Positions 8,323 to 56,195 of a stretch of 64,000 nucleotides of DNA are shown here, one piece after another. The stretch is from NCBI RefSeq assembly GCF_013315695.1, contig NZ_CP054353.1; one strand, 5' to 3'. The translations under genes and the position numbers were made by a program. A model generated the notes under the pieces. The model worked only from the letters and a program-made list of their open reading frames with translations, did no database searches and was not told the DNA's origin. The stretch is from Escherichia coli (GTDB lineage: Bacteria > Pseudomonadota > Gammaproteobacteria > Enterobacterales > Enterobacteriaceae). Numbering within the stretch: position 1 is the stretch's first letter; every line of letters begins with the position of its first letter.

Positions 8323-8325
8323 GTC

Positions 8326-8562
8326 CATAAGAAAGCCCCTCCGGAGAGGGGCTAAAGCCGCGTATCTGTATCATCATGCACATGGTGCCGGGTGCCTCCC
8401 GGTGAGTTCAGCCCGGTGCCACTAAACCCGCGTCATTCTCGTTTTGATAATCAGAGATTATACCGTCACCAGTCGCCCCTCCGCTCAGGGGGATTCACCA
8501 TGCGAAATTTTTTTAACAAATGCCCAGTCTGACAGGCAACTGTCAACTTACTGAATTGTGAG
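8326..8562. repeat. direct repeat copy A (about 237 bp) in the late operon
   Basis: Shares with copy B the blocks AAAGCCCCTCCGGAGAGGGGCT, CATGGTGCCGGGTGCCTCCCGGTGA, GCCCCTCCGC-CAGGGGGATTCACCATGC, TTTTAACAAA and CTGAATTGTGAG. Confidence 0.6.
8335..8352 (-). terminator. hairpin GCCCCTC-CGGA-GAGGGGC with downstream U-rich tract on the minus strand (repeat A)
   Basis: Perfect 7-bp GC stem; in minus orientation followed by TTTCTT. Confidence 0.45.
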
Positions 8563-8812
8563 CAACATAGCATTTAACGGGGAACCTGTTTTCTGCAGTA
8601 AAAAGGCCCACCGGAGCGGATGGGCCTGGAAGGATAGCGGTCATGTGATGCCGGTTTCCCGGTAACTCAGCACCGGTATCTGAGTCAACGTTTTCTCTAC
8701 TGGGTCATTTCCGATACGCCCTGCCTGCTGACAGGCTTTCATCACATCTGAAAATATAGCACCCTGACTGATACTGTAGTACCTAAGGTTCCAGAAACTG
8801 TGATGTATCCGG

Positions 8813-9038
8813 CACAGAAAAGCCCCTCCGGAGAGGGGCTGGAGAGTGGCGCTATGTGCCATTGCATGGTGCCGGGTGCCTCCCGGTGAATTCAGTACCA
8901 GCACCTGAATCCGCGATTATCCCATATACCTACTCGCTGATTGCCCCTCCGCACAGGGGGATTCACCATGCCAGTTTCTTTTAACAAACTCCCCGCAAAC
9001 CAGACAACAGTCAACCGCCTGAATTGTGAGACATTTAA
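8813..9038. repeat. direct repeat copy B
   Basis: Imperfect copy of repeat A about 480 bp away. Confidence 0.6.
8822..8839 (-). terminator. hairpin GCCCCTC-CGGA-GAGGGGC with downstream U-rich tract on the minus strand (repeat B)
   Basis: Same hairpin as copy A; in minus orientation followed by TTTTCT. Confidence 0.45.
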
Positions 9039-9074: not shown

Positions 9075-9151
9075 TGGCGCGTTGTACTGGATTCGAACCA
9101 GTGACCGATTGCTTAGAAGGCAATTGCTCTGTCCGGCTGAGCTAACAACGC
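9075..9151 (-). tRNA. tRNA-Arg (anticodon UCU)
   Basis: Manual fold of the reverse complement: acceptor GCGTTGT/ACAACGC, D-arm GCTC/GAGC, anticodon stem ATTGC/GCAAT with loop CTTCTAA, T-arm ACTGG-TTCGAAT-CCAGT, discriminator G, CCA encoded. Confidence 0.8.
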
Positions 9152-9164
9152 AGGATACAGATAA

Positions 9165-9241
9165 TGGACCGCCTTCGGGGACCCGAACTCCGCGCAACCA
9201 GCTTCGAAAGCTGGCGCTCTTTCCTGATGAGCTAATGGCGG
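9165..9241 (-). tRNA. tRNA-like gene, Arg-type (anticodon UCG by manual fold), possibly degenerate
   Basis: D-arm TAGCTCATCAGGAAAGAGC, anticodon stem CCAGC/GCTGG with loop TTTCGAA, CCA encoded; one mismatch in the acceptor stem and one in the T stem; T-loop TTCGGGT is non-consensus. Confidence 0.5.
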
Positions 9242-9248
9242 TATGTGA

Positions 9249-9324
9249 TGGTGGCCCTTGCTGGATTTGAACCAGCGACCTGGCGATTATGAGTCGCTCG
9301 CTCTCACCACTGAGCTAAAGGGCC
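9249..9324 (-). tRNA. tRNA with CAU anticodon, ileX-like (tRNA-Ile2/lysidine type; could be Met)
   Basis: Acceptor GGCCCTT/AAGGGCC perfect, anticodon loop CTCATAA, T-arm GCTGG-TTCAAAT-CCAGC, discriminator A, CCA encoded; closely resembles E. coli ileX from memory. Confidence 0.8.
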
Positions 9325-13094: not shown

Positions 13095-13367
13095 TTACCT
13101 CCAGATGCGTTGCTGGAATGTGCGGGACGGACGCGGTGGGCGTTCAGAGTAAGGAAGCCTGACGGAGATTATCCAGTGACGATAATCGAGGCTGAGGGCT
13201 TTCTTAATCTCGTATCCGCGTCTGCGGTAGTTATGAATTAGCCATTCGGCCTGTTCTTCAGTACATGGTGGGTGTTGGTACCAGTCGGTTTTAAATGCGT
13301 GTGAACGCCGCCCATGCCGGATGGCAAGGTCGGTATCAGAATTGTGAAATTTGGTTTTGTGCGCCAT
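13095..13367 (-). CDS. hypothetical phage protein (90 aa), position of Qin rem
   Basis: ORF between hok and the DUF968 gene; no recognised domain. Confidence 0.4.
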   Translation of the reverse strand: MAHKTKFHNSDTDLAIRHGRRSHAFKTDWYQHPPCTEEQAEWLIHNYRRRGYEIKKALSLDYRHWIISVRLPYSERPPRPSRTFQQRIWR

Positions 13368-13432
13368 CTGTTTTCTCTGCTGGCGCAGCAGGTGTCAGGT
13401 GTTCAGGCTGACGTGCGAATTGTAAACCAGAA

Positions 13433-13466
13433 TGCCAGAAAAAAACAAAACCCGCCGAAGCGGGTT
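13433..13466 (-). terminator. intrinsic terminator downstream of hok
   Basis: Minus-strand hairpin AACCCGC-UUCG-GCGGGUU followed by a U-rich tract. Confidence 0.6.
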
Positions 13467-13534
13467 AAGTGCGGGTGCGTTGAGGATGCCTGACACATCA
13501 GAGGTGGCGAGGGATTTCTCCCCCGCCAGGTCTC

Positions 13535-13690
13535 TTACTCCTCAGGTTCGTAAGCTGTGAAGACAGCGACCTCCGTCTGGCCGGTTCGGAGTCGTACCTC
13601 GCAGAGGTCTTTCCTCGTTACCAGTGCCGTCACTATGACGGTTAAACAGATGACGATCAGGGCGATTAACATCGCCTTTTGCTGCTTCAT
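13535..13690 (-). CDS. hok: Hok/Gef-family type I toxin (HokD-like)
   Basis: 51-aa product MKQQKAMLIALIVICLTVIVTALVTRKDLCEVRLRTGQTEVAVFTAYEPEE; the ORF-track ORF carries a 19-codon in-frame upstream extension. Confidence 0.85.
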   Translation of the reverse strand: MKQQKAMLIALIVICLTVIVTALVTRKDLCEVRLRTGQTEVAVFTAYEPEE

Positions 13691-13927
13691 AGCCTGCTTC
13701 CCCTTGCCTTTCGGCACGTAAGAGGCTAACCTACATTTGTGAGACATAGATTGGGCCTCAGATTAATGTTAAGCGTCTTGCAGGACGCGAAATGTTAACT
13801 GGGGCTTTTCTCTATCTGCCTTTCAGTGTTCATGCCTGAGACAGATAGCCTCAAGCACCCGCAGCCATTCTACTTAACTCACGTCACCTCGCCAATATGA
13901 AATCAATCAGAAAGGTGATCCATAAAA

Positions 13928-14614
13928 TCACTCCTTCTCTTCTTTTCCGTAGTGGAGTTGGCCAATTTTGATAAGAGGGCGTCCCTGAGATTTGCGGTGT
14001 AGATTGGTATCGCGCAGAGAATACACACAGCCACAATATTCCTGCTGATAGAATTTTTCGCGCTTGCTGATTTCAATCATACGGGACGAGCCGCCCTGCT
14101 TGCGCCAGTTATAATCCCAGTACACCATACCCGGATAATGCGCAACAGCTCGCCGCCCACACTCGTTAACCTGCTGCATATTTTTCCAGCGTGAAATGCC
14201 CAGTGAACTGCTGATCACACTGAAACCATTTTCAGCAGCGTACAACGCTGTCCGCTCAAAACGCATGTCAAAACACATGGTACAACGGATCCCCCTCTCA
14301 GGCTCCCATTCCATTCCTTTGGCACGTTCAAACCAGTTGTCGGTGTCGTAATCAGCATCGATAAACGGCACGCCGTGTTGTTCAGCAAAGCGAATATTTT
14401 CATCCTTACGAATTAAATACTCTTTCTGAGGATGAATGTTCGGGTTGTAGAAAAAGATGGTGTAGTCGATTCCCGAGGCCTGAAGCGCCTCCATCACTTC
14501 ACCGGAACATGGAGCACAGCAAGAGTGCAGTAGTAGTTTGTTTGCCCCGTTTGGGAGCTCCAATTTAGGCCGTTTGAAATCAGCAATAGTCATAAATATT
14601 TTTATTGGGGTCAT
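13928..14614 (-). CDS. QueH-like (DUF208) epoxyqueuosine reductase homologue
   Basis: 228-aa product with N-terminal [11 protein letters not shown] motif and further Cys motifs (CTMCF, YCGCVY) characteristic of the QueH/DUF208 family; true start may be the Met 7 codons downstream. Confidence 0.6.
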
Positions 14615-20017: not shown

Positions 20018-20588
20018 TTCACCCTCCTGAGGGTTGGTAATTAAGGAGTTCTCCACGGGTCAGGTGGAGTGCGTGCGCCGGACACGGGTGAGCATCCGGC
20101 ACTGACAGCTTACTGAAAGGATATGTCCCTGAAAAGTCAGGGCATAACGCGAAAGCGCACGGCGAAATTGGTCTCTCTGTACGGTGTCGTTAAATTTAGT
20201 TCGACCGTGCGCTTCCGGTTGTGGCACTCCGCGAAATGGCGCGGCGGTAAGTATGGCTGGGGTTTCCTCCATTGCTCCAGAAAATGCACCGGGTTGTCAG
20301 GTTGACCATACGCTTAAGTGACAACCCCGCTACAACGCCCTCTGTTATCAATTTTCTGGTGACATTTGGCGGTATCAGTTTTACTCCGTGACTGCTCTGC
20401 CGCCCTTTTTAAAGTGAATTTTGTGATGCGGTGAATGCGGCTATGCGCACGCGGAACAGTTAAAGCAGTAAGGCGGTATTTTACGGGCGTAACGAGCATC
20501 AACTAACCCGGCGTTAATTGTTAACTGGTTAACGTCACCTGGAGGCACCAGGCACTGCATCACAAAATTCATTGTTGAGGACGCGATA

Positions 20589-32550: not shown

Positions 32551-33473
<923 letters not shown>

Positions 33474-55992: not shown

Positions 55993-56076
<84 letters not shown>

Positions 56077-56110
56077 TCTCAAGCATTACCTCAAAATTTG
56101 AATTACCCTT

Positions 56111-56195
<85 letters not shown>

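Follow-up and report, generated by a model that had tools for sequence, protein, structure and literature searches.

Gene content and prophage setting

The gene at 13535-13690 on the minus strand of the window (the whole 64-kb stretch of E. coli DNA that was analyzed) encodes a 51-residue peptide followed by a stop codon (MKQQKAMLIALIVICLTVIVTALVTRKDLCEVRLRTGQTEVAVFTAYEPEE). The peptide matched the HOK_GEF profile (Pfam PF01848) at 79.3 bits (E=1.6e-22, cut-off 22), covering profile positions 1-42 of 42, and is 98% identical to K-12 HokD (50/51 residues), 90% to HokW and 43% to R1 Hok. Its ATG, at 13690, is nested within a 70-residue ORF on the same strand (13535-13747). Together with a 120.5-bit Rfam match to the leader (described below), this confirms the hok-type toxin locus that a preliminary description had proposed from the sequence alone. 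The locus is of a known, experimentally studied kind, and identical DNA is already annotated as hokD. At least 24 complete E. coli genomes in RefSeq carry the 531 bp from 13400 to 13930 with 100% identity; of 5426 complete E. coli genomes, 3795 have a place where at least 80% of this query is covered. The annotation at the match is 'type I toxin-antitoxin system toxin HokD'; the RefSeq record examined carries the hokD CDS only, with no mok, sok or any RNA feature.

Upstream of hok lies a QueH gene (13928-14614, minus strand; PF02677, E=1e-65), in agreement with the QueH-like neighbor that had been described. Downstream is a 90-residue ORF (13095-13367, minus strand), earlier called a rem-position ORF. 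The position is indeed that of rem in K-12 Qin, but BLASTP found no similarity of the product to Rem, which rules it out as a Rem homolog. This ORF is followed on the same strand by genes for a DUF968/HNH protein and RusA, and the RefSeq record examined shows a lambdoid neighborhood of Q, RusA, DUF968, hokD, QueH, DUF977, replication genes and YdaT. The cassette is on the strand of the early-right operon, and no terminator-like site was found between QueH and the hok promoter. Short inverted repeats (GTTAAGT/ACTTAAC) are present at the cassette borders, with an exact match of only 7 nt. Taken as a whole, positions 13439-13895 very probably form a type I toxin-antitoxin cassette (hok/mok/sok, hokD/hokW subgroup) that is complete and self-contained, and we are equally confident that the cassette belongs to a lambdoid E. 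coli prophage, where it sits in the early-right (nin-like) region.

The hok coding sequence varies little. Its diversity (pi) is 0.009 among 60 distinct cassettes drawn from IMG/VR, 933W and a Rac-like phage; one and the same protein is encoded by 52 of the 60, and the others differ from it at 1-4 residues, a pattern that points to strong constraint on the CDS. The hok Shine-Dalgarno region (13700-13703, minus strand) reads GGGG here and GGAG in 55/60 relatives. Near the 3' end of the gene is a predicted site for A-to-I editing by TadA, a UACG motif at 13549-13552 (minus strand) within a sequence that reads GCTTACGAA. The Tyr47 codon, UAC, occupies 13552-13550 in GCUUACGAA, the UACGAA core is invariant in the 60 cassettes, and Tyr47 is at the position aligned with the second cysteine, as in TadA-edited hok mRNAs. 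TadA-dependent Tyr-to-Cys recoding at this position has been reported for hokC, hokD and hokE of K-12, in each case within a TACG motif (Bar-Yaacov et al., PMC5630033). Because K-12 hokD is edited at the same Tyr in TACG, the A at 13551 is predicted to be edited as well, changing Tyr to Cys.

The hok/mok mRNA and its predicted refolding

A scan of the whole stretch at Rfam gathering thresholds matched family RF01794, named 'sok', to the minus strand at 13685-13860, far above chance (120.5 bits, gathering score 59, E=6.6e-27, model positions 1-157 of 157). Despite its name, this family models the sense leader, from +1 to the hok AUG, because the match is on the hok strand and the consensus starts with the 5' end of the hok mRNA. 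Specifically, the consensus begins GGGUGCUUGAG and ends at the hok AUG, and the hok transcript region of the R1-type plasmid locus is headed by the same 5' sequence, GGCGCUUGAGG. The antisense reading of the match was therefore ruled out, and in annotation Rfam 'sok' matches are best read as the sense hok leader.

The hok/mok promoter was placed at 13867-13895 (minus strand), with a -35 of TTGGCG, a 17-nt spacer and a -10 of TAGAAT (9/12 in a consensus scan). The -10 is kept in nearly all of the 60 distinct cassettes and aligns with TATGAT of the R1-type hok locus, at an equal distance from the mRNA 5' end. We set the 5' end 7 nt past the -10, at G13860, coinciding with position 1 of the Rfam model (transcription start site within about 3 nt), and the 3' end at the terminator U-run, giving a predicted full-length hok/mok mRNA of about 420 nt (13441-13860, minus strand). 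The intrinsic terminator that had been described downstream of hok is there: it spans 13439-13466 (minus strand) and consists of a stem (13466-13449) of AACCCGC/GCGGGTT with a TTCG loop, followed by TTTTGTTTTTTT. As for the leader, sok and mok had been expected somewhere within 13691-13927. Both do lie upstream of hok, as detailed below, but the transcribed leader covers only 13691-13860 (170 nt); between it and 13927 are a further 67 bp, made up of the hok promoter (13895-13867) and spacer. A second Rfam candidate, isrK (RF01394) in the hok 3' UTR, was rejected at 27 bits against a gathering score of 50, and this resemblance looks like generic hairpin-plus-terminator similarity.

The 420-nt RNA (13860-13441) has a predicted minimum free energy (MFE) of -173.7 kcal/mol (z = -7.05 versus shuffles). 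Across the 60 cassettes, 95.1% of cells in the whole MFE structure were paired, compared with 33-42% in slid controls, and six pairs showed changes on both sides where 2.4 were expected. Using the definitions of tac, ucb, dcb and fbi from PMC9841398, every fold-back element could be located. The tac element (GGGUGCUUGAGG, 13849-13860, minus strand; mRNA nt 1-12) is invariant in the 60 cassettes (pi = 0) and pairs with fbi (CCUCAACGCACCC, 13473-13485, minus strand; nt 376-388) through 12 pairs in the MFE structure, with a mean pair probability of 0.99. These pairs were formed in 100% of cells in 60/60 distinct sequences, the only changes being G-C to G-U. Covariation support for tac/fbi is weak because the two elements barely vary in this close family: no compensatory changes were seen within it, and different letters appear only in comparison with the R1-type locus, where an equivalent 5'-3' pairing is formed. 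The pairing is also found in 933W.

Adjoining tac is a 5' stem-loop of 13 pairs (13812-13848, minus strand) that is part of both the closed and the metastable 5' structures; at two of these pairs both sides have changed (A-U to G-C; 5 sequences). In a nascent transcript of 40 nt, tac is predicted to fold onto the adjoining sequence as a metastable 5' hairpin. The anti-Shine-Dalgarno element ucb (AAGCCCC, 13801-13807, minus strand) takes over as the partner of tac when the RNA is shortened in silico from its 3' end: on truncation to 13490 or 13500, the tac/ucb probability was 0.84-0.90, versus 0.00 for the full-length RNA. The switch from fbi to ucb was seen in the MFE structure at 3/4 truncation end points, and the fourth gave a different MFE structure. 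The dcb element (GCCUC, 13722-13726, minus strand), which lies under the spacer of the sok promoter, as described for R1 (PMC9841398), pairs with GAGGC at the mok Shine-Dalgarno through five pairs, all invariant in the 60 sequences (probability 0.63-0.73, and 0.68-0.73 in the truncated RNAs). As in R1 (PMC9841398), ucb can also pair with the mok Shine-Dalgarno, with one C.A mismatch. In the full-length RNA of this allele, ucb was paired with the hok Shine-Dalgarno region at a probability of 0.62, versus 0.35 with that of mok. Finally, the 3' UTR contains a stem-loop of 10 pairs (13505-13528, minus strand) in which one pair has G.U, A-U and G-C alternatives and one pair is changed on both sides; by analogy with R1 (PMC9841398), it may protect the 3' end of the processed mRNA. 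In these predictions, the elements and the in silico switch are those described for R1 (PMC9841398). The presence, position and conservation of the elements are results at the level of sequence, and the structural switch is a prediction.

The predicted Sok antisense RNA and the mok frame

In the phage collection, the best characterized relative of the cassette is that of 933W (92.3% nucleotide identity over 418 bp), whose record (AF125520) annotates mokW, hokW and a 71-nt sokW misc_RNA. Projecting sokW onto the window gave a predicted 71-nt Sok antisense RNA at 13739-13809 on the plus strand (GUGAGACAUAGAUUGGGCCUCAGAUUAAUGUUAAGCGUCUUGCAGGACGCGAAAUGUUAACUGGGGCUUUU), composed of a single-stranded 14-nt 5' tail (13739-13752), a hairpin (13753-13807) and then UUUU. 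The fold has an MFE of -28.1 kcal/mol (z = -4.88), and none of 200 shuffles was as stable. The hairpin comprises 23 pairs, and 96.5% of cells were paired across 32 distinct sequences (slid controls 32-49%), with changes on both sides at 3 pairs.

When the antisense strand was aligned with those of 933W, the R1-type locus and 29 further cassettes, the sok promoter could be placed at 13704-13732 (plus strand), with a -35 of TTGCCT (13704-13709), a 17-nt spacer and a -10 of TAACCT (13727-13732). The hexamers and their spacing are identical to those of sokW in 933W/Sp5, and they align with TTGCGC/TATCCT of the R1-type locus. A generic sigma-70 consensus scan flagged only the hok promoter and missed this one because its -10 matches the consensus at only 3/6 positions. 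The same hexamers are functional in sokW: mutation of the sokW -10 abolishes antitoxin activity, and sokW supplied in trans restores protection (PMC8621323). The primers for the 'promoter-less' sokW (YO-421/422), by our reading of Table 2 of that study, replace exactly TAACCTA, and it is this substitution that abolished the activity.

The mok reading frame (13535-13747, minus strand) has 70 codons, taken from the ORF list, and the homologous position in 933W is annotated mokW. Its Shine-Dalgarno, GAGG (13756-13759, minus strand), is 8 nt upstream of the mok AUG (13747-13745) and within an invariant GAGGC block shared with R1. Sok is complementary to both the Shine-Dalgarno (13759-13756) and the AUG. 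Judged from its sequence, then, the cassette appears to encode a Sok in cis, with its own promoter, that covers the mok initiation region. An overlapping mok frame in the leader had been anticipated; mok does start in the leader, but rather than being confined there it is an in-frame N-terminal extension that spans all of hok. The frame is open in 59/60 cassettes (the exception has AUA for the mok AUG), and it occurs in three registers. Most alleles, this one included, are in frame with 70 codons, some have a 19-codon ORF with an AUGA overlap with the hok start, and others are in the +1 frame with 68 codons. As the register varies among alleles, these data fit a requirement for mok translation and not for its product.

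The preliminary description had named, as the alternative, an inactivated relic that lacks an antisense promoter or a Sok-like hairpin. This reading is disfavored because both were found in the leader. With all known regulatory parts present, the cassette looks intact.

A hypervariable block in a modular cassette

Sequence diversity in the cassette is concentrated in a block of about 20 nt at 13733-13754 that comprises mok codons 2-5, the Sok 5' tail and the sok discriminator. Mean diversity is 0.316 in the block and 0.059 overall; the hok CDS has 0.009 and tac 0.000. We counted 25 alleles of the block in 184 contexts, with the rest of the cassette about 95% conserved, and a single flanking context holds up to six alleles. 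The block takes in the first ~16 nt of Sok, except for a constant CAU opposite the mok AUG. In the literature searched, we found no description of a hypervariable Sok-tail block, and it may be the only feature of this locus that is new; it adds something new only if it is shown to set specificity.

Two separate and tentative ideas, which we consider improbable, are that the block acts as a specificity determinant through private pairs of Sok tail and target, and that read-through transcription silences the convergent sok promoter. Private allele pairs would let the hok cassettes of co-resident prophages be controlled independently, without cross-protection. Genomes do hold several matching places (median 2, up to 9). 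In genomes with at least two cassettes, the alleles differed in 13/16, and random draws would differ in about 88% of cases anyway. Two of the three same-allele genomes in this comparison look like duplicated contigs. As for read-through, the cassette is in sense orientation in an antiterminated early operon, and transcription through it on induction would oppose, and could silence, the convergent sok promoter; if true, it would account for the RecA-dependent loss of sokW, which has had no explanation.

The cassette is found in many settings, with at least 20 upstream and at least 17 downstream flank types. Near 13872-13883 and 13439-13447, homology among loci is repeatedly broken off, and because these breaks recur at its borders, the transcription unit of about 435 bp behaves as a module. 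There was a trend for hok to be co-oriented with the longest flanking ORF (14/20 upstream and 14/17 downstream flank clusters), in a census that is crude, as it relied on the longest ORF and mis-assigned the upstream gene of 933W.

Proposed mechanism and role

The arrangement suggests the following course of events. The constitutive promoter would produce a stable mRNA of about 420 nt in which the 5' tac is clamped to the 3' fbi, and in this form the mRNA would escape both ribosomes and Sok. Slow trimming from the 3' end would then remove fbi, allowing tac to flip onto ucb, and the hairpin of the mok Shine-Dalgarno with dcb would present the mok ribosome-binding region and the Sok target. The short-lived, 71-nt Sok would use its 5' tail to pair with the site where mok translation starts, blocking translation of mok and hence of the coupled hok, and leading to cleavage of the duplex. 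If Sok synthesis stopped, Hok would be made, enter the inner membrane and kill or lyse the cell; a Tyr47-to-Cys change made by TadA would probably raise its activity. HokD, HokC and others are toxic when overexpressed (bioRxiv 10.1101/2025.08.07.668861). For this cassette, we infer the RNA half-lives, the processing, the cleavage by RNase III, the editing, the toxicity and the role by analogy with R1 and hokW-sokW. The features of mRNA stability, processing and killing have been partly shown for hokW-sokW, which is 92% identical (PMC8621323).

The likeliest trigger, on the same analogy, is prophage induction, with Hok helping lysis and phage release. We favor this role, which was measured for hokW-sokW (PMC8621323), albeit in another phage and at another location in its genome. 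In Sp5, hokW-sokW is a working type I toxin-antitoxin system: HokW is toxic, and a 71-nt sokW RNA is seen on Northern blots (Takada et al., PMC8621323). After mitomycin C, sokW disappears and HokW builds up in the inner membrane, and phage release falls by half when hokW-sokW is missing (PMC8621323). By this account, the cassette adds one regulated membrane toxin to the prophage and probably influences the timing of lysis on induction, as hokW-sokW does.

The same mechanism could instead serve prophage addiction, in which loss or excision of the prophage would deplete Sok first and Hok made from the stable mRNA would kill the cell. We think this role rather unlikely. A stable mRNA with clamped ends and a small antisense RNA whose terminator is weak would fit it, but prophage loss is rare compared with plasmid loss. 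It is the classical role of R1, and hokW is annotated 'prophage maintenance' (AF125520); against this, deleting hokW-sokW from Sp5 had no effect on growth and gave a phenotype on induction and release (PMC8621323), and the chromosomal hok loci tested by Pedersen and Gerdes showed no post-segregational killing (as cited in bioRxiv 10.1101/2025.08.07.668861).

Abortive infection is a further role that the mechanism could support, since an infecting lytic phage that shuts off host transcription would stop Sok synthesis and release Hok. R1 hok/sok reduces the plating of T4, by the account that later papers give of Pecota and Wood (1996), but by that same account the effect needed a high-copy plasmid. 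The hok genes are about four-fold enriched in prophages but are not enriched next to defense systems (bioRxiv 10.1101/2025.08.07.668861), and nothing within the 64-kb window ties this cassette to a defense island. On balance, we regard this role as distinctly unlikely.

It is very doubtful that the cassette, though structurally intact, is physiologically silent and carried along by phage recombination with Hok never reaching a meaningful level: the hok Shine-Dalgarno is GGGG instead of the commoner GGAG and can pair with ucb, the encoded residue 47 is Tyr and not Cys, and chromosomal hokA, hokB and hokC gave no post-segregational killing or activation by rifampicin (as cited in bioRxiv 10.1101/2025.08.07.668861), but every regulatory element is conserved, the hok CDS is strongly constrained, hokW-sokW, at 92% identity, shows activity in the prophage to which it belongs (PMC8621323), and decayed copies look different, K-12 hokD being without the whole leader.

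Comparison with known systems

The closest studied system, hokW-mokW-sokW of 933W/Sp5, shares with this cassette the 70-codon in-frame mok, the 71-nt Sok architecture and the tac and fbi sequences. The two differ in the hypervariable block, with Sok beginning GUGAGACAUAGAUUGG here and GUUCAGCAUGGAUUGA in sokW, which carries another allele. They also differ at the C-terminus of the toxin (TAYEPEE in this Hok, VDYESEK in HokW) and beyond fbi, where this cassette has a canonical terminator and the 933W sequence diverges. In addition, the 933W cassette is at the far right end of the genome, whereas this one is in a nin-like position between QueH and the DUF968 gene.

R1 hok/sok (parB) has the same order of elements: promoter, tac, ucb and the Sok target with the mok Shine-Dalgarno and AUG, followed by dcb, hok, the 3' hairpin, fbi and the terminator. 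Common blocks (GAGGC, UAGCCUCUUAC and CAAGGAGAAG) are recognizable, the sok promoter is at the homologous position, and a 5'-3' clamp is predicted in both loci. However, the R1-type sequence has mok and hok in different frames, which here are the same, the Sok hairpin is longer here owing to a GC-rich insertion of 16 nt relative to the Rfam consensus, and the pairing of ucb with the hok Shine-Dalgarno in this allele is a slight departure from the R1 scheme. The R1 locus is on a plasmid and this cassette on a prophage. Current understanding of hok/sok is unchanged by this locus.

The locus bears the name of hokD (relF), which lies in the cryptic prophage Qin of K-12. The two share the coding region, the 3' UTR, fbi, the terminator and the UACG editing motif, as well as their downstream neighbors (a small ORF, the DUF968 gene and Q). 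In K-12, however, homology reaches no farther than about 20 nt upstream of the hok AUG; beyond it, relBE stands in place of the hok promoter, tac, ucb, the mok start and the whole Sok RNA region. The leaderless K-12 gene is thus directly downstream of relE, whereas this cassette has the full 170-nt leader with QueH upstream. By this alignment, the present cassette is the intact ancestral-type locus and K-12 hokD a leaderless remnant. Under the name hokD it is not apparent that the locus is intact here and truncated in K-12, and the locus merits mok and sok annotation features.

Modular structure and allelic variation of the hok cassette

Homology break points recur at 13439-13447 and 13872-13883, and because of this recurrence the sequence comparisons show the hok transcription unit (~435 bp) to be a module. 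Among phage contigs, the unit occurs in at least 20 upstream and at least 17 downstream flank types, mostly in the same orientation as its neighbours. The cassette is ~95% conserved outside a hypervariable block at 13733-13754, which has 25 alleles among 184 contexts and a diversity ~35-fold that of the hok CDS (13535-13690, (-)). Both the 5' tail of the predicted antisense RNA Sok (13739-13809, (+)) and mok codons 2-5 fall within this block, whose alleles are shuffled relative to the flanking context. The register of the mok frame also varies between alleles, as seen in the relatives L075, L027, L047, L045, L003 and L080 (columns 123-190 of A2, an alignment of cassettes). Some alleles carry a 19-codon mok, the end of which overlaps the hok start codon as AUGA; others have a mok of 68 codons in the +1 frame. 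The window's own mok (13747-13535, (-)) is in the same frame as hok.

Annotation and mRNA ends

The match to the Rfam family RF01794 ("sok antitoxin") at 13685-13860 (-) lies on the hok-coding strand and covers the mRNA leader, so that automatic annotation of sok from this family would yield a feature that is on the wrong strand and too long. RefSeq also places a 59-aa hypothetical protein (WP_001112736.1) at 13314-13493 (+), on the other strand from hok, crossing the hok terminator and 3' UTR; this is probably a spurious call. At the mRNA ends, 13470-13478 and 13855-13863 show perfect 9-nt complementarity, which continues the helix between tac (13849-13860) and fbi (13473-13485) past the predicted +1, adding 3 nt on its upstream side. 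The true start of the hok transcript may be at any position from 13860 to 13863.

Other RNA genes and comparison with known systems

Two copies of the STnc100 sRNA family (8323-8532 and 8810-9000, both (-); 165 and 136 bits) lie directly downstream of the prophage tRNA cluster (9075-9324, (-)), which comprises Arg-UCU, Arg-UCG and a CAU-anticodon tRNA that is called Met by ARAGORN but Ile by RefSeq. An isrC-family sRNA was found at 32619-32741 (+) (145 bits), and the antisense sRNA DicF at 20354-20405 (+) (77 bits) identifies this as a Qin/Rac-like prophage. A tandem pair of tRNA-Tyr (GUA) genes at 55993-56195 (+) probably lies beyond the prophage, in the chromosome of the host.

A weak resemblance to isrK (RF01394), a Salmonella prophage sRNA family, was seen in the 3' UTR of hok (hairpin, fbi and terminator; 13445-13526, (-)); its 27 bits fall below the gathering score of 50. 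For the downstream 90-aa ORF (13095-13367, (-)), similarity to K-12 Rem was not detectable and no Pfam family was found; its position is the one held by rem in Qin. The tRNA cluster at 9075-9324 is located past both Q and a DNA-methyltransferase gene, an arrangement shared with Stx-type phages.
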